Shown in pieces: positions 1-60,248 of a stretch of 64,000 nucleotides of DNA. The notes beneath the pieces are model-generated. The model did no database searches. It saw only the letters and a list, made by a program, of their open reading frames with translations, and was not told where the DNA came from. Both the position numbers and the translations under genes were made by a program. Numbering within the stretch: the stretch's first letter is position 1; every line of letters begins with the position of its first letter. This stretch comes from a virus (taxonomy: Duplodnaviria > Caudoviricetes): positions 32,001-96,000 of IMG/VR virus record IMGVR_UViG_3300021540_000004, one strand, 5' to 3'.

Positions 1-247
1 TAAACTGCTCTATCAATGTATTATTCATCTTTTCATAATCTATATCCACACTTACTTCAGAAGAAACAGAATAATTCTTAATAACAATATTTAATAATTT
101 ATTCAATTCAGATAATTGTCTTGCATTCAAAAATTCCTGCATATCACGAATAACATTATTAATAAGAACATTACATTCATTATTATCTGATGTAGTGTAG
201 AAATCATTTAAAATAGCATTTCCAACATTCAAATTTATAGAATTCAT
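1..247 (-). CDS. N-terminal part of a tyrosine recombinase (type B paralog), runs off the window edge
   Basis: Manual translation MNSINLNVGNAILNDF...LINNVIRDMQEFLNARQLSELNKLL...DYEKMNNTLIEQF aligns with the N-terminus of 3431..4507 (LINNVLHDMEDLLESRQFVELN); GGTGA RBS upstream. Confidence 0.75.
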   Translation of the reverse strand, partial: MNSINLNVGNAILNDFYTTSDNNECNVLINNVIRDMQEFLNARQLSELNKLLNIVIKNYSVSSEVSVDIDYEKMNNTLIEQF

Positions 248-284
248 ATCCCAAAATCACCATCCATTAATCATATCTTTTTTT

Positions 285-1379
285 TTAGAAGTTAGTGTAT
301 TTTTTATGAGTCATTGCAATTGTCTCATCATCCATATCAAGATACCTCAATGTAGTCTCCAAGCTCACATGACCCATTAACTTTTGAACTTGATCTATAG
401 GCATACCTTTCTTGATCATTGTCGTGCAAAAAGTCCTCCTGAATTTGTGTGGATGTATATCTATATCCAAATATTCACCTATCCGTCTAAAAACCTTATC
501 AACACTTGTAATTGATAAAGGACTACCAATATTTATGTTTGATTCTTGAACAAACATATAAATACTATCATCCTCCCTTAATCGGAGGTATTGGAGCATG
601 TAATTTTTTGCTTTTTCACTAAAATAGATTACTCTTTCTTTATCACCTTTACCATGGACTAAACCTTTACATTCATCAAAATTAATATTATCCGTTTTCA
701 AACTAACTAGTTCACCAACACGAATACCACTACTTAATAATAATTCAAACATTGCTTTTGTCCGCATTGTCCGAATGCTTAATTCATTCTTATTCTTAAG
801 ATAAATATTCCTATTAATGAACCATCGCATTTTCTCTATTTCCTCATAAGTAAATGCTTTTTTAATCTTTTTAGGTTCTTTAACTGGAGGAATACGTAAC
901 ATTGGATTTATTAAAATCTTCTCTTCATCAGTTAAAAATCTAAAAAAGGAAGATAAATTCCTACGCATATTATTAATAGTTGCTTTACTACAACCATTCT
1001 GTTCTTGATAAAAAATAAGAAAATCTTTTAAATCTTCACTGGTTAATTCCAGAAACGATTTAATAGACCATTTCTTCAATGCATTTAAAGAATACTTATA
1101 AGCACCTATAGTTTTTTTAGATAAACCTTTAATTTTTTTAACTTTAACAAACTCTTTAATTAAAATTTCATTTGTTTTATCATAATCCAAATCATGATTT
1201 TTAGGATTATCTGCAAATGTTAAATGGTTTGTATTATAGTATAATGATTTATTTAATTCAGATAATTGTTTATTATCCAGTAAATGTTCCATTCCACCTA
1301 ATACATCTTCAATGAATTGTTTTTTATATTCACCAGTTATTGCTTGAAGTTCATTAATCATATTATACATCAACTCCAC
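285..1379 (-). CDS. XerC/D-family tyrosine recombinase (type A paralog)
   Basis: SGIRVGEL (R), HGKGDKER (K), HPHKFRR (HxxR), LMGH, TTLRY (Y); SAM-like core-binding domain. Confidence 0.95.
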   Translation of the reverse strand: MELMYNMINELQAITGEYKKQFIEDVLGGMEHLLDNKQLSELNKSLYYNTNHLTFADNPKNHDLDYDKTNEILIKEFVKVKKIKGLSKKTIGAYKYSLNALKKWSIKSFLELTSEDLKDFLIFYQEQNGCSKATINNMRRNLSSFFRFLTDEEKILINPMLRIPPVKEPKKIKKAFTYEEIEKMRWFINRNIYLKNKNELSIRTMRTKAMFELLLSSGIRVGELVSLKTDNINFDECKGLVHGKGDKERVIYFSEKAKNYMLQYLRLREDDSIYMFVQESNINIGSPLSITSVDKVFRRIGEYLDIDIHPHKFRRTFCTTMIKKGMPIDQVQKLMGHVSLETTLRYLDMDDETIAMTHKKYTNF

Positions 1380-2916
1380 TAACGTCTAATTCACCATTCA
1401 TCAATAAAGGTAACATTTTATCTAATAACTCTTTTAAGTATCTATTTTCTTCATTATTCCACATTAAAACATTTTGTATCCATAAACCCATCATCATACT
1501 AAACATTTCAGATAATGATTCTTCCTTACTATTTTGTTCAAATTTAACCTCATTCTTCTTCTTAGATAACTGTAAATACTTTAAAGGAGTATAATCTAAA
1601 TCTTCAAAAGTCAAATCTTCCATCTTATCAGGGTTTGTTTCTAATAATTGTTTTAAATTATTAAATATGGCATTAGCTTGTTTATTATCTACATTAACTG
1701 TTTGAATATCAAATTCTTTAGCTAATGTTTGATTAATAGTTAATTTAACTAAACCTCTGCGAGTATCGCATCTTTTAATATCATTAATAATGTCCTTGAA
1801 ACTTCTATGTTTCTTTAAACTCTTTTTAAAATCAAATTTTATATACTTGGATGGGGATAAATCATAATCCTTTTCTCCCACATCTTTAACATTAACTGTT
1901 ATGCAGTATTCCTCTTGGTCTTTTTGGTTTTTTATCGCTTCTGAGATTTCCACTAAATCTTCATCAGTATAATACAAGAAAGTTTTTGTATATACTCTTG
2001 TTTTCATATGGTCTTCGCCTTTCTGCTTTCTTTCAAACAAACCCGTAGGTTGTGATTTAATAAATGTGATTTTACCTTTTCGATTATCTGGTTTAGATTT
2101 TCTAACTTTCAATATAGTGGTTGGAATATCTGTATTAGTAAACATTTTACCAGGAACATTTATAACAACATCTAATAAATCATTATCAACTAGGAATTTA
2201 CGATATATTTTTTCATCTGTTGAAGATAAAACACCATTAGGTAAAATGAATACTCCTACTCCATCATCTGTTAATTGGTCTAATGCTTTAAACACGAAAG
2301 CATAGTTTAAATTCTTATCAAAATTAAAATCATTGGTAATTACTGTTTTTTCTAAGTGTAAATTAAATGGCGGATTAGATATTACTGTATCTACTTTAAC
2401 ATCAGCATTTGGCAATACATTTACTAATAATCCATCTTGCACAGTATATTCTTTAACTCTTTTATCAAACAATACATCTTCTGTGTACACTTTACAATTC
2501 ACTTTATTATAACATAATTTAAATAGTAAAAATGGTAGAACAGTTGTATCTAATTCTTTTAATATGTAACTGCATTGCTCATGAGATTTAAACTTTTCTA
2601 ATGTTAAACTACCCATTCCACAACACATATCATAGATTATGTTTTCATTTTCATGGTTAGATAACATTGCAACCAGTTTACTTAAACTCTTTGGAGTGTA
2701 ATCCTGACTTAAACCTTCACGATCACTTAACCAGAATTCATATAAACCCTGAAGATAATCAAAGTCATCATCTTTTGTAAGTTTATCATATGCTTTAATA
2801 AGTTTACTTAATTCTTTTTTATTACCAATCGTTTTTATTAAAGTATTAGGTAATTCTGAAACATCTTGAATGTTTAATGTTTTTAATAGTTTATTTGTGA
2901 ATTTTTTTAATTCCAT
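1363..2916 (-). CDS. HsdM-like N6-adenine DNA methyltransferase with an HsdS-like C-terminal helix
   Basis: QDYTP, motif I DMCCGMG, motif IV NPPF, ILPNGVL, MFTNTDIPT; ends LKELLDKMLPLLMNGELDV. Confidence 0.9.
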   Translation of the reverse strand: MELKKFTNKLLKTLNIQDVSELPNTLIKTIGNKKELSKLIKAYDKLTKDDDFDYLQGLYEFWLSDREGLSQDYTPKSLSKLVAMLSNHENENIIYDMCCGMGSLTLEKFKSHEQCSYILKELDTTVLPFLLFKLCYNKVNCKVYTEDVLFDKRVKEYTVQDGLLVNVLPNADVKVDTVISNPPFNLHLEKTVITNDFNFDKNLNYAFVFKALDQLTDDGVGVFILPNGVLSSTDEKIYRKFLVDNDLLDVVINVPGKMFTNTDIPTTILKVRKSKPDNRKGKITFIKSQPTGLFERKQKGEDHMKTRVYTKTFLYYTDEDLVEISEAIKNQKDQEEYCITVNVKDVGEKDYDLSPSKYIKFDFKKSLKKHRSFKDIINDIKRCDTRRGLVKLTINQTLAKEFDIQTVNVDNKQANAIFNNLKQLLETNPDKMEDLTFEDLDYTPLKYLQLSKKKNEVKFEQNSKEESLSEMFSMMMGLWIQNVLMWNNEENRYLKELLDKMLPLLMNGELDVSGVDV

Positions 2917-2934
2917 TAAATTGTTCCTCTCTTT

Positions 2935-3414
2935 TTATGTTATGATTGATGCAACCATTTCTTTAGCTTTATCTTCAGTTAAGAAACGACCATAATAATC
3001 ACCATTAATGTAAACAACATAAACTTGTTCATCTTCTAGCCAGTAGTAATATTTTGGCTGGAAATTTAATGTATTAATGGTTTTTTGATGTAATTTACTT
3101 TTATCCCATCCAACTTTTTTTAACTTACGAACAATATTTTTAGCAGTGCTTTCTGATTCAACAGAACCATAATAAACACCACTTTTACGGATATAATATC
3201 GTCCATTACGTTCAAAATAAAACTTATTCTGAACTTTATTTTTAAAGAATAATTCACTCGCTTCACCTGTTAAAGATGAATCTTTCCAATTAACTTTATC
3301 CAATTCATTTACTAGGAATTTCGCTTCTTCTTCAGTATCTACTGTTGTATAATACTTATTTTTTTTACGAATAACATACTTGCCTGATGCTAGTTTAAAA
3401 TAACATTTAACCAT
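2935..3414 (-). CDS. AP2-like repeat DNA-binding protein (3 units)
   Basis: Repeated YYG...E..A......L....W unit shared with five other ORFs in the window. Confidence 0.6.
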   Translation of the reverse strand: MVKCYFKLASGKYVIRKKNKYYTTVDTEEEAKFLVNELDKVNWKDSSLTGEASELFFKNKVQNKFYFERNGRYYIRKSGVYYGSVESESTAKNIVRKLKKVGWDKSKLHQKTINTLNFQPKYYYWLEDEQVYVVYINGDYYGRFLTEDKAKEMVASIIT

Positions 3415-3430
3415 AAAGAAACACTTCCAT

Positions 3431-4507
3431 TTAGTCTGTTAGTTTTTTATGAGTATGTTTTAATTCAGATTCATCAATAATAGTGTATAACTGTGTTGTA
3501 CTAATTCCTTCATGTCCAAGGTATTCTTTTATCTGTTCAATAGGAACTCCTTTTTTCAAAAGATTACTTGCCATCGTACGTCTAAAACGGTGAGGATGAG
3601 TATTTTCCACTCCACAACTTCTTCCAACGTTACGGACTAATCTTTCAACACCATTCGTCCCTAATTGGTTATGTGGTTTTTTAGAAGATACGAATAAATA
3701 AGGATTATTATCTGTTCTTTCATCCAAATACTGTTCCAATAAGAATTTAGTTGTTTCATTAAAATAACAGACACGTTCCTTATTACCTTTACCTAATACA
3801 ATACAAGTTTTATTACTTATATTAACATCATCAAGTTTTAATCCAACTAATTCACCTACACGCATACCACTACTTAACAGTAATTCAAATATGGCCTGGT
3901 CTCTTAAACTTTTTTTATTAAAAGCAAAACGTAACCTGACAATCTCAGCATTACTAAAAGGTTTCTTAACCCTAACAGGTTCTTTAATCTTATGAATACC
4001 TACTAATGGATTATTAAAAATCAAACCATGAATAGTTAAATATTTAAAAAATGATCTTAAATTACGAACATAATTATTAATCGTAACAACACTAATACCC
4101 TCCTCCTGTTTACACCTCATGAAATATTTAATATCCTCCGCGGTAATCTCCTGTAAACCTTTAGGAACATACTTTAAAAAAGAATCAACCGTACTCCCAT
4201 ACAATTGTAATGTCTTTTCAGATAAACCCTCAACACGTTTACCATCTAAAACAAAATTGATTAACTTCTCATTAGTAACACTAACATCCTCATTGAAATC
4301 AACATATTTAACACTGAAACTATAATCAGCAGCAATACGTTTCAAGTTATTATTTAATTCTACAAATTGTCTGCTTTCAAGTAAATCTTCCATGTCATGT
4401 AAAACATTATTAATTAGTGATTGTGCTGCACCATTATCAAAATCATTATAGATTTCTTTACTTACAGCACCACCAAAACCTTCTAATCCAGTATTTAAAC
4501 CCAACAT
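3431..4507 (-). CDS. XerC/D-family tyrosine recombinase (type B paralog)
   Basis: SGMRVGEL, GKGNKER, HPHRFRR, LGH, TTQLY. Confidence 0.95.
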   Translation of the reverse strand: MLGLNTGLEGFGGAVSKEIYNDFDNGAAQSLINNVLHDMEDLLESRQFVELNNNLKRIAADYSFSVKYVDFNEDVSVTNEKLINFVLDGKRVEGLSEKTLQLYGSTVDSFLKYVPKGLQEITAEDIKYFMRCKQEEGISVVTINNYVRNLRSFFKYLTIHGLIFNNPLVGIHKIKEPVRVKKPFSNAEIVRLRFAFNKKSLRDQAIFELLLSSGMRVGELVGLKLDDVNISNKTCIVLGKGNKERVCYFNETTKFLLEQYLDERTDNNPYLFVSSKKPHNQLGTNGVERLVRNVGRSCGVENTHPHRFRRTMASNLLKKGVPIEQIKEYLGHEGISTTQLYTIIDESELKHTHKKLTD

Positions 4508-4513
4508 AATTTT

Positions 4514-5581
4514 TTAGAACTCCATATATTTTTCATGATTTATTTTTAATTCATCCTGATCAACAATTGCATAAATCAAAGTAGTATCAGCATTAGAATG
4601 ACCTAAAAATTTACTAACTTGCTCTAATGGTGTGCCTTTACGCAAAGCATTAGTCGCCATCGTCCTTCTAAATTTATGCGGGTGTGCATGAACACCAGAA
4701 CTCTCACCATACTCCCTTATCAACCTTTCAACACCCGTAACCTGCAACCTATTATGAGGCTTTTTAGAAGAAACAAATAAAGCCACATTATTATCCTCAC
4801 GAGTACTAAGATAATTCTGCAAAGCAACATTAGTCTGACTATTCATATAACAAGTACGCTGCTTATTTCCTTTACCTGTAACAATAAAACTATTATTATT
4901 AAAATCAATACTAGTACGATTTAAATTAACCAACTCACCAATACGAATACCACTACTCAACAATAATTCAAAAATAGCTAAATCACGTTCTTTATTATGA
5001 TTAATCTTATTCTTCTTATGACTATTCTTCTTATCAAAAATAATAGCATTACGCAACAAAGTAATTTCCTTAGCAGTAAAAGGCTCCTTAACAGACTTCT
5101 TAGATTTAATAGCTGGAAGTTTACGCATAGGACTATCAATAATATACTCCGATTCAATAAGATAATTATAAAAACTACTTAAAACACGTCGCACATTATC
5201 CACAGTACTATTACTACAACCATTCAAATCTTTATAAAACTTAAAATAATCCTTAATATCATTAGTAGTTAAATCAGTTAAAGGTTTAACCGCCCAATCA
5301 CTAAAATTCTTCAAAGTACTACGATAATAACTAATCGTCCTTTTACTACAACCCTGTAATTTCTTCTCAGAAGTAAAATTACGGATTAACTCCTCATTAG
5401 TAACATCATAATCCAAATCCACCACAGGCTTATCCTTAATATTCAAATCATCAGTATGCCTATTCAATGATTTATTCAACTCAGTTAATTGCCTATTATC
5501 CAACAAACCATTCATACTTTCTAATACATCATCAATGAATCGTTTCTTATACTCTGCAAAAACAACATCATACTCTTCCAT
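4514..5581 (-). CDS. XerC/D-family tyrosine recombinase (type A paralog)
   Basis: SGIRIGEL, GKGNKQR, HPHKFRR, LGH, TTLIY; N-terminus EYKKRFIDDVL matches 285..1379. Confidence 0.95.
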   Translation of the reverse strand: MEEYDVVFAEYKKRFIDDVLESMNGLLDNRQLTELNKSLNRHTDDLNIKDKPVVDLDYDVTNEELIRNFTSEKKLQGCSKRTISYYRSTLKNFSDWAVKPLTDLTTNDIKDYFKFYKDLNGCSNSTVDNVRRVLSSFYNYLIESEYIIDSPMRKLPAIKSKKSVKEPFTAKEITLLRNAIIFDKKNSHKKNKINHNKERDLAIFELLLSSGIRIGELVNLNRTSIDFNNNSFIVTGKGNKQRTCYMNSQTNVALQNYLSTREDNNVALFVSSKKPHNRLQVTGVERLIREYGESSGVHAHPHKFRRTMATNALRKGTPLEQVSKFLGHSNADTTLIYAIVDQDELKINHEKYMEF

Positions 5582-5600
5582 ACGAAAAAAACACCCCCTA

Positions 5601-5858
5601 TTAAATTAATTTAGTTTGAATATTGTCAAATGTATCAATAACCCATTCTCCTTTAAAGTCTTTGTCTTCAGGTTCATAGCATATTAAATCATAGCCTAAT
5701 TCATTTAATTTATCCAGTAGTAATTGCTGTTTTAACTCATATTCATTGAGTAGGTCTACTGGGAATTTTCCTATTTTTTTGTCTTCTTTATCGTCTTTTA
5801 TATGGACTGTATCGTGTGTTTTTCCATATACTAAACGATACCTGTTTTCTTCATACAT
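5601..5858 (-). CDS. Hypothetical protein ending in QTKLI
   Basis: ORF with GGAGG RBS; C-terminal motif shared with three other proteins. Confidence 0.7.
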   Translation of the reverse strand: MYEENRYRLVYGKTHDTVHIKDDKEDKKIGKFPVDLLNEYELKQQLLLDKLNELGYDLICYEPEDKDFKGEWVIDTFDNIQTKLI

Positions 5859-6027
5859 TATTTATCCTCCATTTTCTCTTTTTTTAAAGTATTCACAACA
5901 GTCTCCAAGTCTGTGAACATAATAGTTATGATGATAGCAGAATCCTTGATATTCACGTGGTCTTAACCATTGGTAATGTTTACATTCAAAATGTCTACAA
6001 TTCATTCTTATAACACCTCATTTTATA

Positions 6028-7590
6028 TTAGGGGTATATTTTATCTGCTTCCTCTTTGATACCAGGGAATTTTTCCTCGTTCCAGTTTACATCAATTAAT
6101 TGGTCTCTTATGTATTCTGCTTTTTCTTTATTTTGATAGGTTCCGAAGTTATTCATGCGTTTATCTTTTCCTTTATGTCTTACGGAATAGCTAATTACTT
6201 TTCCTTTATATTTATTTTCGTAAACCCATCTTTTGCTGCCGACAATACTTTGGAAACCTATTAATTCATGTATTTTTTTAAGTCTTTTTTTATCCCAATC
6301 ACATTCTTTTAATTTTTTAACAACTTTTTTAGCTGTTTTTTTATTTGGGTAACTACCATAGTATACTCCTTTACGTGCAATTATGTATGGGCTGGGTCTG
6401 CCATCTGTTCTGAAATGAATATAATTTCCATCACTATAATGTACACTTAAATCCGGTGTGAAAACACGTTCTATTTCTAATAATTCTAATGGGTCTTCAC
6501 CAGACCAGCATATGTTTTTGAAATCCTTCCAGCTAATATTATATCTTTTAAGGTAATTTCTAATTGATTGTTCATTAATACCCATTAATTCAGATAGTTC
6601 TTTTTGAGTGTTAACTCCCTCCAGTATTAATTCTTTCATTCTTGTGAGTTCATCTTCATAAGTTTTAAGTGGAACATTATGTAAAATAGTTCTTTCTGGA
6701 TATGGAGGTAATTCCATATTGTAATATGGGTTATTATCATCGTTAGCACAATAGACAATTGTTTCTATATCAAAATCATATTTAACATATAAATCACGTT
6801 CCCATAACGCATCTTCTAAATTACTAAAAACTAATGTTGTTATTTTGCCTTCATTGTTGGTTGGTGTTAATACGAATGCCCATTTACCATCATGTGATCC
6901 ATTCTTTAAATGTGGTCTGACATAACGATAGAATCCTACTAGCCAGGTATACCATTTAGGATAATCGTTTAATATTTCAGGTATTTTATTTTTATCCCAG
7001 TTACATTCTTGTAGTCTTTTTTTCACGTAATAAGCTTGTTCATATGTTCTGCATGCACAATAATACTTACTGCTGTATTTTACATGGTATGATTGTGGTC
7101 CTTTTTTAGTTATTGTTCCTTCAGCGTAATTGGAATCTTTTTCTTTTTTAACTAATCTTTCAGGTACTGGATAATCTAAACCATCTTCTAAATAAGGGTT
7201 ATCTGTAATTAAATCATATAATTTAATATTTAATTTAACATCCCAATTATTATGTTTAACAATGTCTCTCCATAATAAAGCTTCTTCTAGTGTGTTGCAT
7301 CTTCCGAAATATGTGTTTTTCCCGTTTATTCTTTTGATTATAATATATTGGGAATTTTTAACTAATGTAATGTGTTTATAGTATTCTTTTTCGTAGTCAA
7401 CTTCTAATGTTTTTATCCAATCATGTTCTATTAACCAGTCTCTTTTGTTGACTGCATCTTGGAAATTATCATATTGTCCGAAATATTCTCGTTTACCATT
7501 TATATTTTTGAAAATACGATATTTTCCATCATATTTGTTTATGTATTTACCATACTGTTTTTCATAACTATTTTTACTTCCAATGCTCAT
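6028..7590 (-). CDS. Multi-AP2-like repeat protein with internal HTH
   Basis: About six YFG.Y....A...RD.L....W units; HTH-like TQKELSELMGINEQSIRNYL; start moved to ATG 7590 after the TTTTTCGTATG context. Confidence 0.7.
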   Translation of the reverse strand: MSIGSKNSYEKQYGKYINKYDGKYRIFKNINGKREYFGQYDNFQDAVNKRDWLIEHDWIKTLEVDYEKEYYKHITLVKNSQYIIIKRINGKNTYFGRCNTLEEALLWRDIVKHNNWDVKLNIKLYDLITDNPYLEDGLDYPVPERLVKKEKDSNYAEGTITKKGPQSYHVKYSSKYYCACRTYEQAYYVKKRLQECNWDKNKIPEILNDYPKWYTWLVGFYRYVRPHLKNGSHDGKWAFVLTPTNNEGKITTLVFSNLEDALWERDLYVKYDFDIETIVYCANDDNNPYYNMELPPYPERTILHNVPLKTYEDELTRMKELILEGVNTQKELSELMGINEQSIRNYLKRYNISWKDFKNICWSGEDPLELLEIERVFTPDLSVHYSDGNYIHFRTDGRPSPYIIARKGVYYGSYPNKKTAKKVVKKLKECDWDKKRLKKIHELIGFQSIVGSKRWVYENKYKGKVISYSVRHKGKDKRMNNFGTYQNKEKAEYIRDQLIDVNWNEEKFPGIKEEADKIYP

Positions 7591-7608
7591 ACGAAAAAAC
7601 ACTTCCTT

Positions 7609-13847: not shown

Positions 13848-14996
13848 CTAACTTCGAGATGAAAGGCAAACTCCGTCGTCCCAACGGTTTAAGATATTAA
13901 TAGCGGCATTAATATCCCTATCATGAGTATTTTGACACTTAGGACATGTCCATACTCTATGACTAGTAGTTAATTGATTAAAATATTCATGGCAAACACT
14001 ACATTCTTGACTAGTATATGCAGCATTAACTTCAACTAAACCAGTAGCTTCAGGTTTATACCAACTAAATTTATATTGAATCATATTTTTAAATCTATTT
14101 AATGGAAACCGAATATTTTGTTCACCTTTAGTTAAAGATTTAAGTATATTAACCCAATTATTTTCAATTACAATAGTATCACACTCTTTAACCAAATTAG
14201 TTGAAAGTTTTTGAGTAAAATCGTTTAATTTATTCTTGATTTTATCATACCACTTATTTAATCTTCTTTGATATTTTTTAAAGGCTTGACTTCCTTTCTT
14301 TTTAGTACTTAATGATTTATTCAATTGTTTAATCATTTGGATTTCATGATTAATATCAAATTTATATTTATCACCAGTATTACTAACAAGAAAACTATTC
14401 TTATTACTATTTAAGTCAAAACCTTTATTAATACCGGTTAATTCTAATTTATTAACAGGAGCTTCAATATTAACAATAGCAAAATATTTAAAATTATCAT
14501 AACTAATAGTTATATTGTTAATTTGAATATCTTCTGAATTAAGTAGATTAATATATTCTTTACTAGTTCTAAATCTAATCATACCATATTTTCTAAGCTT
14601 AAAATGAGTTCCTTGAACTAAATTATCCGTTACAGTTTGTCTAAAACTTAATCTAGTATTTTTTTTACTGTGAAATTTTGGAAATTTTGATTTAGGATTT
14701 TTAAAGAACATTTGATAGGATTTGAACAAATCACGGCTAGATTGTTGAAGACTAGTAGATTCAACTTCTTTCAAAAAATGAAATTCTACTTTAATTTCAT
14801 TTAAAAATGTATTGATTAATTTGATATTTAATTTATACATTCCTGAATACCTAGCATATAGATTGTTTAATCTATCTAATATTTGATTATATACTAATCT
14901 AGAACAACCAAAGTTTTGCTGAAAAAGTCTTTCCTGTTCCTTATTAGGATATATTCTAACCTTAATTCCTTTATTTACTATTTGCATATACTTCAC
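13848..14996 (-). CDS. tnpB: TnpB RNA-guided endonuclease
   Basis: KVRIYPNKEQ...FGCSRLVYN; RuvC I GFDLN, RuvC II VIEN, YTSQECSVC/CPKC zinc finger, RuvC III DRDINAAIN. Confidence 0.95.
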   Translation of the reverse strand: MKYMQIVNKGIKVRIYPNKEQERLFQQNFGCSRLVYNQILDRLNNLYARYSGMYKLNIKLINTFLNEIKVEFHFLKEVESTSLQQSSRDLFKSYQMFFKNPKSKFPKFHSKKNTRLSFRQTVTDNLVQGTHFKLRKYGMIRFRTSKEYINLLNSEDIQINNITISYDNFKYFAIVNIEAPVNKLELTGINKGFDLNSNKNSFLVSNTGDKYKFDINHEIQMIKQLNKSLSTKKKGSQAFKKYQRRLNKWYDKIKNKLNDFTQKLSTNLVKECDTIVIENNWVNILKSLTKGEQNIRFPLNRFKNMIQYKFSWYKPEATGLVEVNAAYTSQECSVCHEYFNQLTTSHRVWTCPKCQNTHDRDINAAINILNRWDDGVCLSSRS

Positions 14997-26858: not shown

Positions 26859-27107
26859 TTACAGCATATTATTAAAATAAAAATTAATACATTTTAAAAT
26901 ATGTTTACAACAATAACTACCTAACTCTTTATGTTTTGCATACAAGTACGACGGGCAATCACATCGCCAAATTCCTTCCACACAACTGGTTAAATATTCA
27001 TCTTCACTTGTACCTTTTACTTTAAATACTATTTCATCTTCATCAGTATCATAAAATAAACTTATGTCTTCATCTTTTATTTGTGAAGCTCTTTGAAATG
27101 TTTTCAT
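26859..27107 (-). CDS. SWIM zinc-finger protein
   Basis: CDCP...CKH. Confidence 0.8.
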   Translation of the reverse strand: MKTFQRASQIKDEDISLFYDTDEDEIVFKVKGTSEDEYLTSCVEGIWRCDCPSYLYAKHKELGSYCCKHILKCINFYFNNML

Positions 27108-27151
27108 AATGCACGCCCATTTTTAATATGATTATATGTTTCTAGCAAGTA

Positions 27152-27793
27152 TTATTTTATACCATGTTCTTCTTTATATTTCTTAATATATTTAATTGCT
27201 TCACGGTTATCTTCTTTGGAGATTTCTCCTGCTTTGTACATGTTCATTCTTAAACCGTTGAGTTTGTATACTTCTGCTTTTTTGTTTGGGTATTTGTTTC
27301 TGTATATTTCTAGTAGTTCTTGTATTATTTTTGGATGTTCAGATTCGGTTACTTGTTCAACTACATTACCTGTTTCTCCAGGTGCTTCTTCTATAGTTGC
27401 ATCTGGATCTATACTGTCTTCCAGTATTTGGAATGTATCCATTAACAGGTAACGTTTTAGGTATGTTATTTTTTTTCCTTCGTCTTTTTCATCTTTGGTT
27501 ACTTCAGGTAAGCGTACTCTTGCACTGAATTCTTGATAGTTTTTATCTTGCCAGCCTACGAGTTTTAATAGTAATTGGTCGTTTGTTGCTGTGAAGTACA
27601 ATGTAAGATGATATTTTTTACATTCTCTCATCACAGGTGGTAGCATTTCTTGTAGTGGTATAAATTCTCCATGATATCCTTCTTTGGTTTTGAATTTATG
27701 GCCCATTAATGCTGTTTGTATGTTACTTATTTTTTCATGTATGGACATGTTTTCTATGTCTTCTACTTGTTCAATGGTATTATTTTGGTTCAT
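27152..27793 (-). CDS. ERF-family single-strand annealing protein
   Basis: SIHEKI..IQ, G..ITYLKRYLL...F.I...D.D. Confidence 0.75.
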   Translation of the reverse strand: MNQNNTIEQVEDIENMSIHEKISNIQTALMGHKFKTKEGYHGEFIPLQEMLPPVMRECKKYHLTLYFTATNDQLLLKLVGWQDKNYQEFSARVRLPEVTKDEKDEGKKITYLKRYLLMDTFQILEDSIDPDATIEEAPGETGNVVEQVTESEHPKIIQELLEIYRNKYPNKKAEVYKLNGLRMNMYKAGEISKEDNREAIKYIKKYKEEHGIK

Positions 27794-28668: not shown

Positions 28669-29853
28669 CTACAACCACCCCTCCATATCTTCAACATCAC
28701 TCTTAGAAACATTCTTAAAAATATAATGCTCAATACTCTCCAAACGACTAGATAAAACATCCAAATCCTTAGACTTACGCAAATTCTCACGCTCCAACTC
28801 AATATATTCCTTACTCTTATAAGTTAAATTCTTCAAATTCCATCCAATCATAACTGCATCCATATAACGCATATACTCCTCTTTCAAAGAAGCTGGATCA
28901 TCTAAAAAATAAGCTTTATGAACATTACTTTTACTACGGCCTTGCAAAGAATCAACATTATCTACACTCATACCCGCATTATGCAAACGACTAGCATGAA
29001 ACTTCCTTAACATATGTGGTCTTAAACGAGTATAAGTTCCTTTTTTACCGAGATTCAGTTTTTCATTCAATACATTAAAAACATAATTCATGTTAGAAGC
29101 ACCAATATCAAATAGTCTATCTGTATTATGTATTTCTTTTTCTTTGCTTACTAAATGAACGTTTATTGCATTAGCTGCTTCAGGTGAGCAAAAAGTAGTA
29201 TAATGTTTATTTGTTTTTTTACGTAGTATTTCAAATTGAGGAACAATATCTTCTCTGTCTTTTAATATGCTTAAAACTTCATAGATATTACTACTATGAT
29301 GATAGGAGTATGTTGCATCAATATAATCTTGTACTGTAAGGTTGGAAACTTCTGTTCTTCCACAACCGCTTGATATTATGAATAGTATTATGGCCCTGTC
29401 TCGTATTTTAGCTATATCTAGTGCTTTTTTTATTATTTCTTCATCGGGTAGGTCTCTGTAGTTTATTGTTCTTGGTGTTTTTACGTTTTTTTCGCTTATT
29501 GGTGGTAAGTCTCCTATTTCTATTTCGCAGTGTCGGTATATTGTGCATATACAGGTGAAGTATCTTTTTGCTGTGTTTTTTAGGTAGTCTTTGTATAGTG
29601 CTGCTCTGAATTTTAGTAGTCTTGTTCTTATTGTTCTGTTTTTCCACCTCACTCTTTCTTCTTCTTCTTTTTCGGCTTCTTTTATCAACTCTTTCATTGA
29701 TTTGTTGTTTTGTTTTGTGTATTTTGTTATTACTATACGGTATATCTCTTGGGTTGATAATGAAATGTTTCGTATATCTATTATGTCTTGGAGAAATTTT
29801 TCATCTTGCATATACATTAGTATCACTTTTATATTTATATTTGGTTTTTCCAA
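28669..29853 (-). CDS. Tyrosine recombinase/integrase (methanogen-type clade)
   Basis: SSGCGRTE (R), RKKT (K), HMLRKFH, LQGR, HKAY (Y). Confidence 0.9.
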   Translation of the reverse strand: MEKPNINIKVILMYMQDEKFLQDIIDIRNISLSTQEIYRIVITKYTKQNNKSMKELIKEAEKEEEERVRWKNRTIRTRLLKFRAALYKDYLKNTAKRYFTCICTIYRHCEIEIGDLPPISEKNVKTPRTINYRDLPDEEIIKKALDIAKIRDRAIILFIISSGCGRTEVSNLTVQDYIDATYSYHHSSNIYEVLSILKDREDIVPQFEILRKKTNKHYTTFCSPEAANAINVHLVSKEKEIHNTDRLFDIGASNMNYVFNVLNEKLNLGKKGTYTRLRPHMLRKFHASRLHNAGMSVDNVDSLQGRSKSNVHKAYFLDDPASLKEEYMRYMDAVMIGWNLKNLTYKSKEYIELERENLRKSKDLDVLSSRLESIEHYIFKNVSKSDVEDMEGWL

Positions 29854-33082: not shown

Positions 33083-34136
33083 CTATAAAATATTATACTC
33101 CTTCCCAGACAAAAAAACATTCACAACAACAGTAAACTCCTGATTAACAACACCACCATCACCAAAACCATCAACACCCCTAAAAAACATAACATTACCC
33201 ATAACACCCACATACAACTCCTTCAACCAACGAGGATTAGTCTTAATATAAGTCTCATGAACCATATTCTTACTACGACCCTGCAAAGCATCCACATACT
33301 CAGCACCCAAACCAATAATTAGACGCATGAAACTTCCTCAAAGTATGAGCACGAAAAAAACGATACCTACCCTTAAAACCCCAACCCATACGATCATTCA
33401 ACTCCTGAAAACGAGACAACAACAAACTACTACTAAAATCAAACAACCTATCATCCAAACACAAACCATCACGAGTCAACAAATAATCAACAATAGCACC
33501 ACTAGCCTCAGGAGAACAAAAAGTATAATACCACTTATCAGTCTTAACCCTACGCAAATACAAAGTAGGAACAACATCACCACGACCCTTCAAAAAATCC
33601 AAAACACTCCGCAAATCACCACCTTTATGATAATCCCTGGTACCACGAACAAAATCACCAACAGTCAAAGACAAAGTTTCAGCCTTAGCAGTACCACTAC
33701 TAGCCATAAACAAAATAACAGCCTTCAAATCCAAATCAACACTATTCACAGCATTCAAAATATCATCATGACTAGGCAAATCACCATAACCAGTAACATA
33801 ACCCTTGTCATAACTAGCCGGAGGAATATAAGGCAACTCCAACTCAAAATGCAAATAAAAAGTCTTAACTTTCTGAAAATAAGTTTTACTAGTATTCGGA
33901 GAAAAATCCTCCTCCAACAAAAAATTACGGAACTTCAACAACCTACGCTTAATACGACGATTCTTTAAAACAATACCATTATCCTCATCTTCCATAGCCT
34001 CACTTAACAATTCAGAAACACTCTTTCGATGAACTTTACAATACAAATTCAAAGAAGAAATATAACCTTTACGAGTACTATCTTTCAAATTACGATCTAC
34101 ACAAAATTGCTCAAAAAATTTATCTTCAAGAATCAT
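33083..34136 (-). pseudogene. Tyrosine recombinase, paralog of 28669..29853, with a +1 frameshift
   Basis: HTLRKFHASN continues as IGLGAEYVDALQGRSKNMVHETY after removing one T near 33317; catalytic Tyr lies in the second frame. Confidence 0.85.
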
Positions 34137-38446: not shown

Positions 38447-38917
38447 ATGGGATATGTGAAAGATAACAAAAACTTACTAACATATAACCAATGGTCCGCA
38501 GGAGAATATGAAAACAGCCCAGACATATTTGTAGTAAAATATTATATAAAAAATATAAATACTACTGAATATTCAGACATCGGTGAATTATCGATAAAAC
38601 TAACAAGAACAGAAAATGGTGGAACTGGAGGATCATATGGACAAATATCCTACGAAAATAGTATACCTAACAAAACATTAACTGCTTCAGCAACAATTAA
38701 AACAAAAGAAACTGAAGTAGACATGATATTACTTGACAAGCTAAGTACTCAGGAATTTAAAGCGAAATATGTGCGGGTGCCGACAAATTTTTGTGGTAAT
38801 GTTAATGTTTCATTAGAAAGTAATGAATTAAACAGTTCATTCGCTATTCAATTTAATAATCGGGGAAATAAAAACGATTTCTTATATGTTGACAATACAT
38901 CATTAATTATAAGTTAG
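38447..38917 (+). CDS. Receptor-binding-domain cassette 10 (inverted; has own ATG GGA TAT before the site)
   Basis: GTGAAAGATA at 38456; NLL.YNQWSAGEY, SDIGE.S, YVDN. Confidence 0.85.
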   Translation: MGYVKDNKNLLTYNQWSAGEYENSPDIFVVKYYIKNINTTEYSDIGELSIKLTRTENGGTGGSYGQISYENSIPNKTLTASATIKTKETEVDMILLDKLSTQEFKAKYVRVPTNFCGNVNVSLESNELNSSFAIQFNNRGNKNDFLYVDNTSLIIS

Positions 38918-39369
38918 TGAAAGATACTAATAATTTATTAAATTTTAACTATTGGTCCGCAGGCGAGTATGAAAATAAACTAAATTACATGATAACAATT
39001 GATTCTGGAGCAATAATTACTAATGAATACTCAGATATTGGTGAATCATCAATAAAACAAATAAGAACTGCAGATGGTGCAAGTGGTGGGTCATATATTA
39101 GAATAAACTATAACAATAGTATCATTAATAAAACCATAACAGCATCAGCAACAATCAAAACAACAGACTATGATGTAGATGTAATTATTGGAGAAAAAGC
39201 TGATGTAACTAATGCATATTCAACAGTTGTACCAGCTAATTCCTGTAGGAATGTTAGTGTTTCATTAGTTAGTTCATCTTCGAATACTTCCTTTTTTATT
39301 CAAGTCAATAATCGTGGAAATAAAAATTCTGTTGTGTATGTTGATAATATCTCATTATTTTCGAGTTAG
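38917..39369 (+). CDS. Receptor-binding-domain cassette 9 (inverted)
   Basis: GTGAAAGATA at 38917; same motifs. Confidence 0.85.
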   Translation: MKDTNNLLNFNYWSAGEYENKLNYMITIDSGAIITNEYSDIGESSIKQIRTADGASGGSYIRINYNNSIINKTITASATIKTTDYDVDVIIGEKADVTNAYSTVVPANSCRNVSVSLVSSSSNTSFFIQVNNRGNKNSVVYVDNISLFSS

Positions 39370-39812
39370 TGAAAGAAAACCAAAATCAGATGGAGCATAA
39401 TATATGGAGTGGAACAGAATATAAAAACAACCTAGAAGACATAGATTACATCACAAATACATTAAATGCAAATCAAAGCACGTATTGGTCTAGTATTGGA
39501 GAAACATCACTACACCTAAAATCAACAATAAACAGTTACCAACATGCTATTTTTAAAAAAATAAATGTCGAACAGGACACTAATTTAACAGTAGAATGTG
39601 ATATATTACATAAAACCGGTGAAAACATACAATTAAGGATATTTCAAGATACTGCCAATTTTACTGATGTTGACATACCTATAAATAATAATCCTATGCA
39701 TGCCAGTGTATCCAGTTTAATAACCAAATCCCAAACCATACATATACTATTAATTTTAAGAAATAATACTGATGAAGCATACATTGATAATATAAAACTA
39801 ACTACGGATTAA
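39369..39812 (+). CDS. Receptor-binding-domain cassette 8 (inverted)
   Basis: GTGAAAGAAA at 39369; NIWSGTEY, SSIGETS, YIDNI. Confidence 0.85.
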   Translation: MKENQNQMEHNIWSGTEYKNNLEDIDYITNTLNANQSTYWSSIGETSLHLKSTINSYQHAIFKKINVEQDTNLTVECDILHKTGENIQLRIFQDTANFTDVDIPINNNPMHASVSSLITKSQTIHILLILRNNTDEAYIDNIKLTTD

Positions 39813-40230
39813 TTCAATATTATCTAAATAAAATGATTTTTTATATAATGTTGTACACATAACTTTAATAGACGAGTTTGTTGTTTCTGCTGAAACGGAA
39901 AATCTTCCCAGTGAATTTTCAGGTATTCTAACTATTCCAATATTATCCCCATCATTAATAAATATATTAACCACATTATTTGGTGAATATACATCTGCTT
40001 CAAAAGTGAATGAATTACTGCCCGTTAAACCAGTTAATACACAAACAGTTATGCTACCCATTAATGTTTCATGTGTTCTAGTTATTTTTAAACTATTTTC
40101 ACCTTTTGTGCTCCATTCTTTTGATGGTTGGATTATTGAACCGTTCATATTACTGAAATCTGTAGTGTTTTGTAAGTAATCCGTTCCACTCCATTGGTTA
40201 TATGATAGTAGGTTGTTTGTATACTTTCAC
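39798..40230 (-). pseudogene. Receptor-binding-domain cassette 7 with a 1-nt insertion in its head site
   Basis: GTGAAAG[T]ATACAAACAACCTA; removing 40223 restores VKDTNNLLSYNQWSGTDY in frame with ORF 39798..40148. Confidence 0.8.
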
Positions 40231-40649
40231 GGAACAGTAATTAATGCAATATCATCAATATATATGGAAGCATTCATAGTGTCTGATAAAAAACGAACCC
40301 CCCTAATATTTTCATTATCAACTTGAATAGATAGCGTTTGTATTTGATTACTTGGCTGAAACATAACATAAGAAGTACTGTCTGTTCCATATTTAACCAT
40401 TACTCTACCAGTACCTTCAGGAGAATATATTTTTACTGTTAATTTATAATTATCCGTTGGAAGTGTAATATCATGGTCTGATATATAATCCACAATATTT
40501 GGGCCTGTTCGTGTTAATTTTAAACTTCTCTCACCATCATAACTCCAGTTATTAGATGAAATAGGGTTTCTAGTAAATCCTGTAATGTTTTGATTATAAT
40601 CTGTTCCACTCCAAACATTATATGGCAATAAGTTATTAGTATCTTTCAC
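40227..40649 (-). CDS. Receptor-binding-domain cassette 6
   Basis: GTGAAAGATA at 40649; NVWSGTDY, GERSLKL, YIDDI. Confidence 0.85.
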   Translation of the reverse strand: MKDTNNLLPYNVWSGTDYNQNITGFTRNPISSNNWSYDGERSLKLTRTGPNIVDYISDHDITLPTDNYKLTVKIYSPEGTGRVMVKYGTDSTSYVMFQPSNQIQTLSIQVDNENIRGVRFLSDTMNASIYIDDIALITVP

Positions 40650-40655
40650 AGAATA

Positions 40656-41117
40656 TTAAATGGATTCATAAGTTATTTTTAGATCATCTACAAAAATACT
40701 TGAACCAACAACATCATGAGTATATAATTGTAATCTTAAACGTTCAACTGCATCACCAGTAGTTAATGTTATTGTTGTTTTTTGTGTTGTATTTGCAGGA
40801 ATAGTAGTAAATACTTGATGATTAACATTATTACCCTGTTCTATTGCCATTAAAACAGCATCATTATTTGATGTTTTATAAGTTGCTGATACAGTTACTA
40901 AAACATTATGTTCTGTGAATGGTTGTAATAAATACATACTATATCCATTTTGACTTAAACGTGTTAATTTTAAACTTTCTTCACCAATACTAGAATATTG
41001 GTTAGTTGATTCGATATTAACACAACCAACAACATTAGGTAAAAATTCTGTTATTGTGTGGTTATATTCCCCAACACTCCATGCGTTATGGTTTAAGATA
41101 TTATTATTATCTTTCAC
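40656..41117 (-). CDS. Receptor-binding-domain cassette 5
   Basis: GTGAAAGATA at 41117; NAWSVGEY, SIGEESLKL, FVDDL. Confidence 0.85.
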   Translation of the reverse strand: MKDNNNILNHNAWSVGEYNHTITEFLPNVVGCVNIESTNQYSSIGEESLKLTRLSQNGYSMYLLQPFTEHNVLVTVSATYKTSNNDAVLMAIEQGNNVNHQVFTTIPANTTQKTTITLTTGDAVERLRLQLYTHDVVGSSIFVDDLKITYESI

Positions 41118-41566
41118 AAACTAGTTAATGATAAATTATCAAAATAGGAGGACTTATTTAGGCTTTTAATAGTAATACGTAAAGCAACACTAGTAACTTC
41201 TTTGTCTTGATGAGATTTTGCATTTAAAGTAATTAGTTGTGGTTTATCCGAAGATGGAATAGAAATGTAGTCCATATGTTGTGAATCGTCAGAATAAAAA
41301 AAAACAATACCTAATATTATTTCTGATGTTGGTGTGTAAATAGTGGATTTTCCTTGTAGGTCATTATATTCTCCATATAGTAAATATTGTACCCACATAT
41401 ACTGGTCATCAATAGTAGTGGCTTTAAATGATTGTTCTCCAATACTTGAATATTCATTTGTTAATGTAATTTTTAATCCTGGAGCAATGATTAACCCTGA
41501 AGTATTTTTATTGTATTCTCCACCACTCCAAATGTTGTGTGGTATTAGATTGTTATTATCTTTCAC
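41114..41566 (-). CDS. Receptor-binding-domain cassette 4
   Basis: GTGAAAGATA at 41566; NIWSGGEY, SIGEQS, YFDNL. Confidence 0.85.
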   Translation of the reverse strand: MKDNNNLIPHNIWSGGEYNKNTSGLIIAPGLKITLTNEYSSIGEQSFKATTIDDQYMWVQYLLYGEYNDLQGKSTIYTPTSEIILGIVFFYSDDSQHMDYISIPSSDKPQLITLNAKSHQDKEVTSVALRITIKSLNKSSYFDNLSLTSL

Positions 41567-42015
41567 AAACTAATTAATGATAAATCATCCCAATAGCATG
41601 GTTGATTAATAGCATATATTAAAATACGTAAAGCAACACTAGTAACCTCTTTATCCGGGTCGGATTGTAAGTTTAATGTAATTAGCTGTGGTTCATCCGA
41701 ACGTGAAACAGTTACACCACCCGTGCTAAAAGAACCATCAGAATAATAAAAAACAATATATAAACTACTTCTTCCTAGTGGTGTGTAGATGATTGATTTT
41801 CCTTGAACATTAGTATATTCTCCAAGTACTGTTGATTGTGCCCAATGATTGTTTTCATTGATTCTTTCACATTTAAAAGAGTGTTCTCCAATAATTGAGT
41901 ATTCATTTGTTACCATAACATCAAATCCAGTAAAACATGTTAATTCGGAGATGTTTTTAGTATATTCCCCTGCAGACCATTGGTTGTGTGTTAGTAGGTT
42001 ATTGTTATCTTTCAC
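41563..42015 (-). CDS. Receptor-binding-domain cassette 3
   Basis: GTGAAAGATA at 42015; NQWSAGEY, IIGEHS, YWDDL. Confidence 0.85.
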   Translation of the reverse strand: MKDNNNLLTHNQWSAGEYTKNISELTCFTGFDVMVTNEYSIIGEHSFKCERINENNHWAQSTVLGEYTNVQGKSIIYTPLGRSSLYIVFYYSDGSFSTGGVTVSRSDEPQLITLNLQSDPDKEVTSVALRILIYAINQPCYWDDLSLISL

Positions 42016-42018
42016 AGA

Positions 42019-42468
42019 TTAAACATACTCTAATGTAAAATTATCAACAAAAACAATATTATTTTCAGAAGATAAAATCCTCAAAGAAACAGATTTAAGA
42101 GTTTCTTGTTTAGTTGGGTATGTATTAACAATTATTTTATTAAAAGTGTTATTAACTGGTACAGAAGCTCCTCTAATGTCTTGAGTATTATCTAAATATG
42201 TAAAAACAATTAATAAACTAGTTGTGCCAGATGTTAAAATATTTGCTGTTCCTTTAAAAGTAGTGTTGGTTGGATTACTTAATATGCAGTCTAAACGTAG
42301 ATATGAGTTTCCAATACTATTTATTTGTAGACAGTTCTCACCTATTATGGAATTCTTGTTTGATAAATATGTGGTTACTCCACTACCAATGTAAAAATCA
42401 TTTAATGTATTATTATATTCTCCACTACTCCATTGATTAAATGTTAAGAGATTATTGGTATCTTTCAC
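42019..42468 (-). CDS. Receptor-binding-domain cassette 2
   Basis: GTGAAAGATA at 42468; NQWSSGEY, IIGENC, FVDNF. Confidence 0.85.
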   Translation of the reverse strand: MKDTNNLLTFNQWSSGEYNNTLNDFYIGSGVTTYLSNKNSIIGENCLQINSIGNSYLRLDCILSNPTNTTFKGTANILTSGTTSLLIVFTYLDNTQDIRGASVPVNNTFNKIIVNTYPTKQETLKSVSLRILSSENNIVFVDNFTLEYV

Positions 42469-43403
42469 TGACTTGAAATAAAATTTATATTATCTAAATA
42501 ACATGAACTATTAATATTTCCATTATTCACAACTTGTACTACAAATCTAACGTTTTCGGAAGTAGTAACTAATGATAATGTTGTATTAGTACAAGTATTT
42601 TTAGGTATTATTGTAGATACATGATTTAGGTTAGTTACATCTGAAAATTCATATAAAAATATTTTTATTGGCGATTTAGTGTTAATATCTAATTTTACAG
42701 TAATAGTTTTTGAATATATGCTGTTACGATAGTTTATTCTTACCCATGATGTTTCTTGTAGTTTTATTACTTTTAATGAGTTTTCACCAATACTACTCCA
42801 TTCATTAGTATGTATTAATGAAGTATGTTCAGATGATTCTACATCGAATCCGGTTTTTTCTTTTTCATATTCACTTCCAGACCATTGGTTAAATGTTAAT
42901 AGGTTATTAGTATCTTTCACAAACACGGATAAAATATTCGATTTCCACACAGAACCTGAGACGGTGACTTCAGCGTATACATAGTATATGCCTACTCCTA
43001 GTATTGTTCCGTCGAAAGTGTAATTGTATCGGCTGTTGGTGCTGTCCCATGTTGCTGTTCCTAGTACTGTTCCATCAACTTTTTTAACTGTACAGGTTAC
43101 ATTGCTTCCGATACCTGTGATTCCGCTTATGTACACTGTTTCGGTGGTGGTGTCTGTTATCCCTATCTTGGTTAGGCCTTCGAATGATGGTGTTCCGTCG
43201 TGGAAGCATAGGTATGGGTTTCCTGTTGTGGTGATGTATCGTGTTAGTCTTTCGTTGTTGATTCTATCTTTGTTGGTGAATGATGTTATTTTTCCTTGTA
43301 CATCTACAGTGTTTATTTTTTTGTCTAGTAAAGTGTCTACTTCGGTTTCTGTGTAAAATATTCCTTTTAACCAAGTTAAAAAGTCTGTTGTAAATTTTGC
43401 CAT
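42465..43403 (-). CDS. Tail fibre/adhesin expression locus: constant N-terminus fused in frame to cassette 1
   Basis: N-terminal LTWLKGIFYTETEVDTLL anchor shared with other fibres; internal VKDTNNLLTFNQWSG starts at GTGAAAGATA 42920. Confidence 0.85.
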   Translation of the reverse strand: MAKFTTDFLTWLKGIFYTETEVDTLLDKKINTVDVQGKITSFTNKDRINNERLTRYITTTGNPYLCFHDGTPSFEGLTKIGITDTTTETVYISGITGIGSNVTCTVKKVDGTVLGTATWDSTNSRYNYTFDGTILGVGIYYVYAEVTVSGSVWKSNILSVFVKDTNNLLTFNQWSGSEYEKEKTGFDVESSEHTSLIHTNEWSSIGENSLKVIKLQETSWVRINYRNSIYSKTITVKLDINTKSPIKIFLYEFSDVTNLNHVSTIIPKNTCTNTTLSLVTTSENVRFVVQVVNNGNINSSCYLDNINFISSQ

Positions 43404-60179: not shown

Positions 60180-60248
60180 AACTATAAATTAAATCTTCTT
60201 TTTTATAATTTTTTTTATAATCCTATTATATATTTATTTTTGTTTTTT

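Follow-up and report, generated by a model that had tools for sequence, protein, structure and literature searches.

The window analyzed here, a 64,000-nucleotide stretch that spans bases 32001-96000 of the 120,184-bp IMG/VR virus record IMGVR_UViG_3300021540_000004 (CheckV completeness 89%; G+C about 29%), begins with two tandem pairs of genes for XerA-like tyrosine recombinases, A/B and A'/B', each pair accompanied by a gene for a protein built of AP2-like repeats. We found that the two members of such pairs belong to separate subfamilies that have diverged in step across related viruses. We interpret each pair and its AP2-repeat protein as a self-contained, heteromeric recombination module that is owned by the virus and acts on the viral genome, a tentative reading to which we give slightly less than even credence. 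Sequences related to the window virus are present in assemblies of Methanobrevibacter and other Methanobacteriaceae, and the host is therefore a gut or rumen methanogen.

The genes of both modules lie on the minus strand. Gene A (4514-5581) encodes a first-type recombinase of 355 amino acids (aa) and is followed after 6 nucleotides (nt) by B (3431-4507), which encodes a second-type recombinase of 358 aa; the two form a pair of what we call type I, and X159 (2935-3414, 159 aa), with three AP2-like beta-beta-beta-alpha repeats, is the accessory gene of this pair. Beyond a gene for a 517-aa N6-adenine DNA methyltransferase (1363-2916) comes the second module, whose pair is of type II. Its first-type gene, A', occupies 285-1379, with a probable ATG start at 1361, one base past the methylase stop, and the N terminus of its second-type gene, B', occupies 1-247. 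B' is complete in the whole genome, where it encodes 352 aa and runs to genome position 31189, ending 811 nt before the window start; after it, also outside the window, comes the gene for Y', a 533-aa protein with six AP2-like repeats. A first-pass annotation of the stretch had given the minus-strand order A, B, AP2-like gene, methylase, A' and B', and the open reading frame (ORF) listing together with Pfam bears it out.

Each of the four recombinases carries a SAM-like and a Phage_integrase domain (Pfam, E values of 1e-32 to 1e-37). The best NCBIfam model for all four is that of archaeal XerA, NF040815, with 224.5 bits for A, 233 for B, 205.3 for A' and 207.4 for B' against a cut-off of 220, and scores for the XerC and XerD equivalogs TIGR02224 and TIGR02225 are 136-183 bits, far under their cut-offs of 335 and 330. 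None of the catalytic residues R213, K237/240, H302, R305, H328 and Y337 varies among the four proteins, and these residues are kept throughout both the first and the second subfamilies of related viruses; the full catalytic set already reported for the three complete genes is thus real, and it extends to B'. The closest solved structure is XerA of P. abyssi (PDB 4a8e, E=4e-47), which covers profile positions 65-353 and is without the N-terminal extension of the viral proteins. In an AlphaFold2 (AF2) model of A, with a mean predicted local distance difference test score (pLDDT) of 87, a helical hairpin (residues 2-22 and 29-43) is followed by a disordered linker and then by an ordinary XerA body. 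Within the first ~75 aa, A resembles A' (score 168, 55% identity) and B resembles B' (score 109), with cross pairs scoring 56-84, and the motifs that the first-pass annotation had seen as shared by A and A' and by B and B' are real in this part. They are absent as a signal elsewhere: beyond it, the four proteins are roughly equidistant, at 38-50% identity, and the closest overall are A and B, at 47.8%. For this reason, the division into A and B types needed a phylogeny.

A maximum-likelihood tree of 43 proteins, accompanied by 200 bootstrap trees, placed all 14 first-of-pair proteins and all 13 second-of-pair proteins on opposite sides of a single branch (93/97 support; 100% of bootstrap trees), and a smaller tree gave the same split; the trees drew on 8-9 related viruses. 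The phylogenetic check named in the first-pass annotation thus returns separate A and B clades. The first and second subtrees have identical internal topologies, and the distances among first proteins follow those among their partners (r=0.957; Mantel test, 0/9999). At least four pair types can be distinguished among the related viruses: type I, comprising our A/B and L007_p1; type II, comprising our A'/B', L116_p1, L009, L011, L036_p2 and L038_p1; type III, comprising L010_p2, L116_p2, L036_p1 and L038_p2; and type IV, comprising L010_p1 and L007_p2. The related viral contigs share the module layout, some with two pairs (L007, L010, L036/L037, L038 and L116) and others with one pair within the fetched stretch (L009, L011 and L203). 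In the six viruses that have two pairs, the types always differ within a virus, and the first-then-second order is kept in 14/14 complete pairs as well as in a cut pair of L007. DNA homology between our genome and L116 covers exactly A' and B', and that between our genome and L007 covers exactly A, B and X159; what is inherited and exchanged is therefore the pair, in some cases together with its third gene. Together, these results lend reasonable support to the view that A and B are partner subunits of a XerC/XerD-like recombinase module. The earlier proposal of obligate heteromers analogous to XerC and XerD accordingly holds in one part, since the separate clades, mirrored topologies and correlated distances support the partnership; strict obligacy is called into question by the genome G254, described below.

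The pairs are related to a gene of the host family. In a sample of 201 Methanobacteriaceae genomes surveyed for XerA and for pairs, many have one chromosomal XerA of 327-338 aa, for example on two ~1.68-Mb contigs that span nearly the whole of their assemblies, and the N-terminal extension is already present in this host protein. Host XerA forms a clade of its own in the tree (Shimodaira-Hasegawa-like approximate likelihood ratio test, 99), and the neighboring viral clade of first and second proteins (94) splits into first (83) and second (95) subclades. Because the host clade is sister to the combined viral clade, the phylogeny shows the A/B duplication to have taken place inside the virus lineage, with the modules arising from an XerA of the Methanobacteriaceae type. 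Single tyrosine recombinases of Selenomonas, Parablautia and Lachnospiraceae, which are 33-39% identical to A, can be aligned with it starting at residues 7-12; gut Bacillota therefore possess part of the 'methanogen' N-terminal extension as well.

The AP2-repeat gene is linked to the pairs throughout. Using an iterated profile of the X159 repeat, we found that a gene for an AP2-like repeat protein (2-9 repeats per protein) starts 1-176 nt past 14/14 pairs with downstream sequence, and the same profile found no AP2-repeat protein in G006, a related virus without pairs. In L007, X159 has been inherited along with A and B. The AF2 model of X159 (pLDDT 82) contains three beta-beta-beta-alpha units, and its top fold matches are WRINKLED1 (Z 4.6), AtERF1 (2gcc; Z 4.5, root-mean-square deviation 1.2, 38 residues), PfSIP2 and TEM1, with the arm-binding domain of lambda integrase lower among the matches. 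These Z-scores are just 3-4.6, as expected for a 40-residue domain, and the top AP2 match in Foldseek is weak. X159 matched no Pfam family at E<=0.01, its sequence search of the PDB was empty, and the sequence match of Y' is confined to the DNA-binding part of an HNH-endonuclease PHROG. From the model and its AP2/ERF matches, low in Z as they are, we assign an AP2-like fold to X159 with moderate confidence, in agreement with the AP2-like gene annotated after B. A further protein of this kind, Y (6028-7602, minus strand, 524 aa), is encoded upstream of pair I; it has five AP2-like repeats and a weak helix-turn-helix, and is a paralog of Y' (40% identity).

We propose that A and B, in the manner of XerC and XerD, work as a hetero-oligomer in which each subunit would bind one half of an asymmetric core site and both would be catalytically active. 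The putative role of the AP2-repeat protein is accessory, in DNA binding or as an architectural factor, and would correspond to the one played in cis by the arm-binding domain of the lambda and Tn916 integrases. The pairs would recombine the viral genome at virus-specific dif-like sites; our guess is that this would resolve replication multimers or circularize the genome.

Several observations weigh against this proposal. The co-divergence of A and B could come from physical linkage alone, and a search for subfamily signatures found no residue that discriminates first from second proteins at 85% conservation. Second-like single genes occur (L011_x, L012 and G197), and in G254 a full-length Xer-type frame lies beside a truncated one, so that pairing may not be strictly obligate. 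With respect to sites, self-comparison of our genome turned up just direct promoter or leader repeats beyond the tail-fiber cassette array (shufflon) described below, and neither inverted nor direct pairs of sites, and nine module loci have no common noncoding motif, the 12-mers that they do share being low-complexity or coding. A scan of 20 larger ORFs found no partition or plasmid-maintenance genes, which tells against multimer resolution, and the proposal offers no reason for two different modules in one virus. As to the G254 contig itself (contig 273, 130.6 kb), it represents a 77.1-kb viral genome assembled ~1.7 times over, with matches that repeat at +77,099, and its truncated Xer frame, which also holds an Int5-like fragment with an internal TGA, looks like a decaying pair.

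The tail-fiber cassette array (38447-43403, both strands) consists of one expressed gene with six minus-strand and three plus-strand cassettes, each opening at GTGAAAGA; the ten openings have GTGAAAGA(T)A in common and divide into seven minus-strand and three plus-strand copies. The first-pass annotation had described this array as having no adjacent recombinase and had put forward the A/B pairs as its trans-acting invertases. The description was wrong: Int6 (33087-34136, minus strand), a frameshifted tyrosine recombinase of the Int5 family and ortholog (56-66% identity) of the array-side recombinase in G006, lies 4.3 kb from the array, and A/B lie 33 kb from it. Int6 carries a one-base insertion after FHASN, such that the ortholog's frame covers 33300-34136 and the C-terminal part with the catalytic Tyr region continues in another frame to ~33087; this break could mark a genuine pseudogene or else stem from misassembly of an A/T run. 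Its paralog Int5 (28669-29853, minus strand, 394 aa, 40% identity) is an intact integrase.

Comparison with other viruses separates the arrays from the pairs. A DNA-pattern scan of IMG/VR led us to G006, a genome of 87,267 bp that carries a homologous fiber gene and an array in which nine minus-strand and three plus-strand sites make up the 12 copies of GTGAAAGA, with one inside a cassette. Its array region (L111 4267-10003) has two adjacent Int5-family genes, and the Int6 ortholog, a 345-aa tyrosine recombinase, lies 2 kb from the array. Although recorded as 'linear', G006 has contig ends that overlap inside a recombinase gene, and the genome is therefore complete (circular or permuted); profile, hidden Markov model and tblastn searches found no A/B-type gene in it. 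Seven more IMG/VR viruses carry Int6 orthologs, and the A/B type is absent from the six Int6-ortholog records that were searched whole. Three of these six, G209, G211 and G212, are without A/B and carry cassette arrays of another kind, located 1.5-10 kb from Int6 and showing inverted ~45-nt opening segments. Conversely, no cassette of the window-array family was found among the five viruses with pairs or single Xer-type genes that were searched (G001-G005); one of these, G001, has two A/B pairs and no GTGAAAGA-type cassettes, but an array of another kind. Every array-bearing virus examined has an Int6-type gene, that of G001 being merely 23% identical. Arrays and A/B modules vary independently. 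In terms of genome content, the arrays in viruses that lack A/B answer to an observation that the first-pass annotation had named as refuting its idea, arrays that rearrange where these genes are missing. Int6 is likely a better candidate than A/B for the array enzyme, and the Int5/Int6 family likely fits the shufflon role. Smaller arrays that look invertible are present at L207 12520-14640, L209 18250-20505, L210 18890-20005 and G001 58425-60875; their ~45-nt opening segments, which occur in direct and inverted copies ~1.1-1.2 kb apart, differ from GTGAAAGA, and those of L209, L210 and G001 are related to one another.

In light of these data, we consider it improbable that the pairs invert the array in trans, with one subunit on the conserved GTGAAAGATA arm and the other on a weakly conserved upstream arm. 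Some array junctions do form an 11-6-11 imperfect palindrome with two unlike arms, which would fit a heteromeric enzyme, and the frameshift in the nearby Int6 may mean that another recombinase is needed; a genome-wide scan for 11-(6-8)-11 imperfect palindromes gave many chance matches, the sole notable ones being these junctions. However, the complete G006 shares the site and has cassettes facing both ways with no A/B-type gene, the other three arrays stand without pairs as well, the five pair- or Xer-type-bearing viruses searched are devoid of such cassettes, and the intact Int5 is at hand as a paralog of Int6. It is also improbable that the pairs work as integrases, placing the virus in the host chromosome at dif or another secondary site by hijacking or mimicking the host XerA/dif system. 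Host XerA has its nearest relatives in the viral proteins, and contigs of 0.2-1 Mb are on record for one member protein, P0101, as this idea would have it; yet among the 201 Methanobacteriaceae genomes, pairs are on contigs of 17-66 kb only and never in a large chromosomal contig. Relatives of the virus group were looked for in 314 Methanobacteriaceae genomes and found in about 22 of them, nearly all on contigs seemingly separate from the chromosome. One clear provirus, in G155, lies in a 234-kb contig (contig 3; L238 3827-5181) with an Int5-family integrase at its edge beside tRNA-Ala(GGC) and host housekeeping genes beyond; this genome is without an A/B pair. The Int5 family therefore suits the integration role in this group as well. 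No copy of the tRNA-Ala attP was found in our own genome, G006 or G001. A generic dif-like pattern was no commoner than the control in five host genomes, and no host dif could be defined from them. The modules are thus probably accessory genes that serve neither as shufflon invertase nor as tRNA-site integrase, both of which roles fit the Int5/Int6 family.

Two further explanations concern what the pairs are. It is unlikely, in our estimation, that A and B are independent homomeric recombinases with separate sites, kept adjacent by tandem duplication and tight linkage. Such an arrangement would accord with the full active sites of both proteins, with the homomeric action of host XerA on a near-palindromic dif (PMC2958812, PMC3646895), with the lack of subfamily-specific residues, and with the second-like singles and the G254 frames. 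Against it, order and pairing are kept down to ~38% identity across the complete pairs and the cut one, the types are never mixed and matched, and no lone first-type gene occurs in an intact locus. Rather unlikely, too, is the idea of the module as a selfish mobile cassette of the Tn554 kind that moves between viral genomes without function for the virus. The architecture does recall tnpA-tnpB-tnpC, in which neither recombinase can be spared (PMC3414803); viruses combine the pair types in various ways (I+II, I+IV, IV+III and II+III), with homology that ends at gene boundaries; and smaller relatives are without modules. These features must be set against a constant genomic neighborhood and orientation, operon packing with spacers of 1-50 nt, searches that found no terminal repeats, target duplications or empty-site/filled-site pairs, and the absence of any NCBIfam Tn554-family match, and homologous recombination between co-infecting viruses explains the reshuffling equally well. 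A variant of the heteromeric module, improbable at present, is that the array of AP2 repeats steers the XerA pair by reading an extended DNA address; the specificities would then be diversifying, with two types stacked in one virus, and, instead of housekeeping resolution of multimers, the module could rearrange or capture host DNA or that of competing viruses.

The methyltransferase between the modules is of the N6_Mtase/Eco57I type by Pfam (PF02384, E=1e-39). It had been annotated as HsdM-like, which is correct as to an N6-adenine methyltransferase and wrong as to the HsdM equivalog, TIGR00497, for which it scores 80 bits against a cut-off of 242.75. Its junctions with the neighboring modules are 18 nt and overlapping, and no flanking repeats were found when looked for. 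The closest relative, L007, has no methylase at the equivalent position. We saw no sign that the recombinase pairs mobilize the methylase. Small N6_Mtase genes are often found upstream of pairs, and another viral contig has a methylase of 36% identity at a distance of 1 kb from a lone Xer-like gene; the association of modules with methyltransferases is thus recurrent but loose. The window virus has at least four adenine methyltransferase-like genes, and before the window, at genome positions 4067-6479, a gene for a 630-aa N6_Mtase (MmeI-like) adjoins one for a 170-aa Type I specificity (Methylase_S) half-domain. The viral genome also contains a TnpB/IS605 OrfB-type gene with a Cas12f1-like TNB domain (window 13848-14996, minus strand). 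No RNA genes came out of Rfam and tRNA searches that covered the window and the module.

The modules seemingly belong to a single ~15-kb transcription unit, which they share with genes for DNA-binding proteins and methyltransferases. Copies of a repeated leader element at genome positions 41959-42060 and 27096-27193 bracket the four-recombinase region. This composite leader/promoter element, present in direct copies, reads TTCTCAC...CTTTTGGG, is followed by a TATA-rich box and marks the starts of transcription units; its other copies are at genome positions 1894-1937, 3917-3991, 14532-14590, 44992-45071, 55427-55522, 60193-60231 and 117389-117426. Directly upstream of A is an 85-aa ORF (5601-5858, minus strand), for which no homologs were found in the related loci. 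The translation-start region before first-type genes, roughly AGGGG(A)GTGTGTTTTTTT(C)GTATG, is kept across pair types (window 5582-5600; L007 9975-10000 and 12700-12726).

We found no description in the literature of this module or of paired archaeal or archaeal-virus tyrosine recombinases, the main methanogen-virus compendium lying outside the search. Reviews of archaeal tyrosine recombinases (PMC8371274) and of Xer systems mention no heteromeric recombinase from archaea or their viruses and describe archaea with a single, homomeric XerA. If our interpretation is correct, the viruses of gut methanogens have re-invented the XerC/XerD principle independently, and they would offer at least four natural specificity variants of a paired recombinase for study. 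The picture of the tail-fiber shufflon is corrected as well, in that its enzyme likely belongs to the Int5/Int6 family, of which the virus's own copy is frameshifted.

Among known systems, the shufflon and phase-variation recombinases (Rci of R64, Int1 of the haloarchaeal virus phiCh1 and Rin of Bifidobacterium prophages) are likewise tyrosine recombinases found with an invertible array of receptor-binding cassettes. Those, however, are single enzymes encoded at or in the array, unlike A/B with their distant position and their absence from array-bearing relatives. Tn554 and recombinase-in-trio (RIT) elements share with the modules tandem, co-oriented tyrosine recombinase genes with plausible active sites, and Tn554 has a third, accessory gene as well; both recombinases of the TnpA/TnpB/TnpC type are required, and the subfamilies of Tn554/RIT recombinases stay associated (PMC3414803). 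These are bacterial mobile elements of other recombinase families, whereas the third gene of the virus encodes an AP2-repeat protein and we found no signs of transposition or defined ends. Archaeal XerA (P. abyssi 4a8e; NF040815) is alike in its domains and catalytic residues and as the best sequence match, and the host version also shares the helical hairpin. XerA is one chromosomal gene that acts as a homomer at dif, in contrast to the viral pairs, which represent two diverged paralog subfamilies whose genes are always adjacent, number two to four per genome and have an AP2-repeat gene with every pair; our virus has four copies in two tandem pairs, and the host XerA forms a separate clade. 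Compared with XerC and XerD, the viral pairs have scores far under the equivalog cut-offs, no dif-like asymmetric site or FtsK-type activator has been identified for them, and their duplication took place independently, in the virus lineage. Like XerC and XerD, however, they consist of two paralogous tyrosine recombinases, both with intact active sites, that fall into separate, co-evolving clades.

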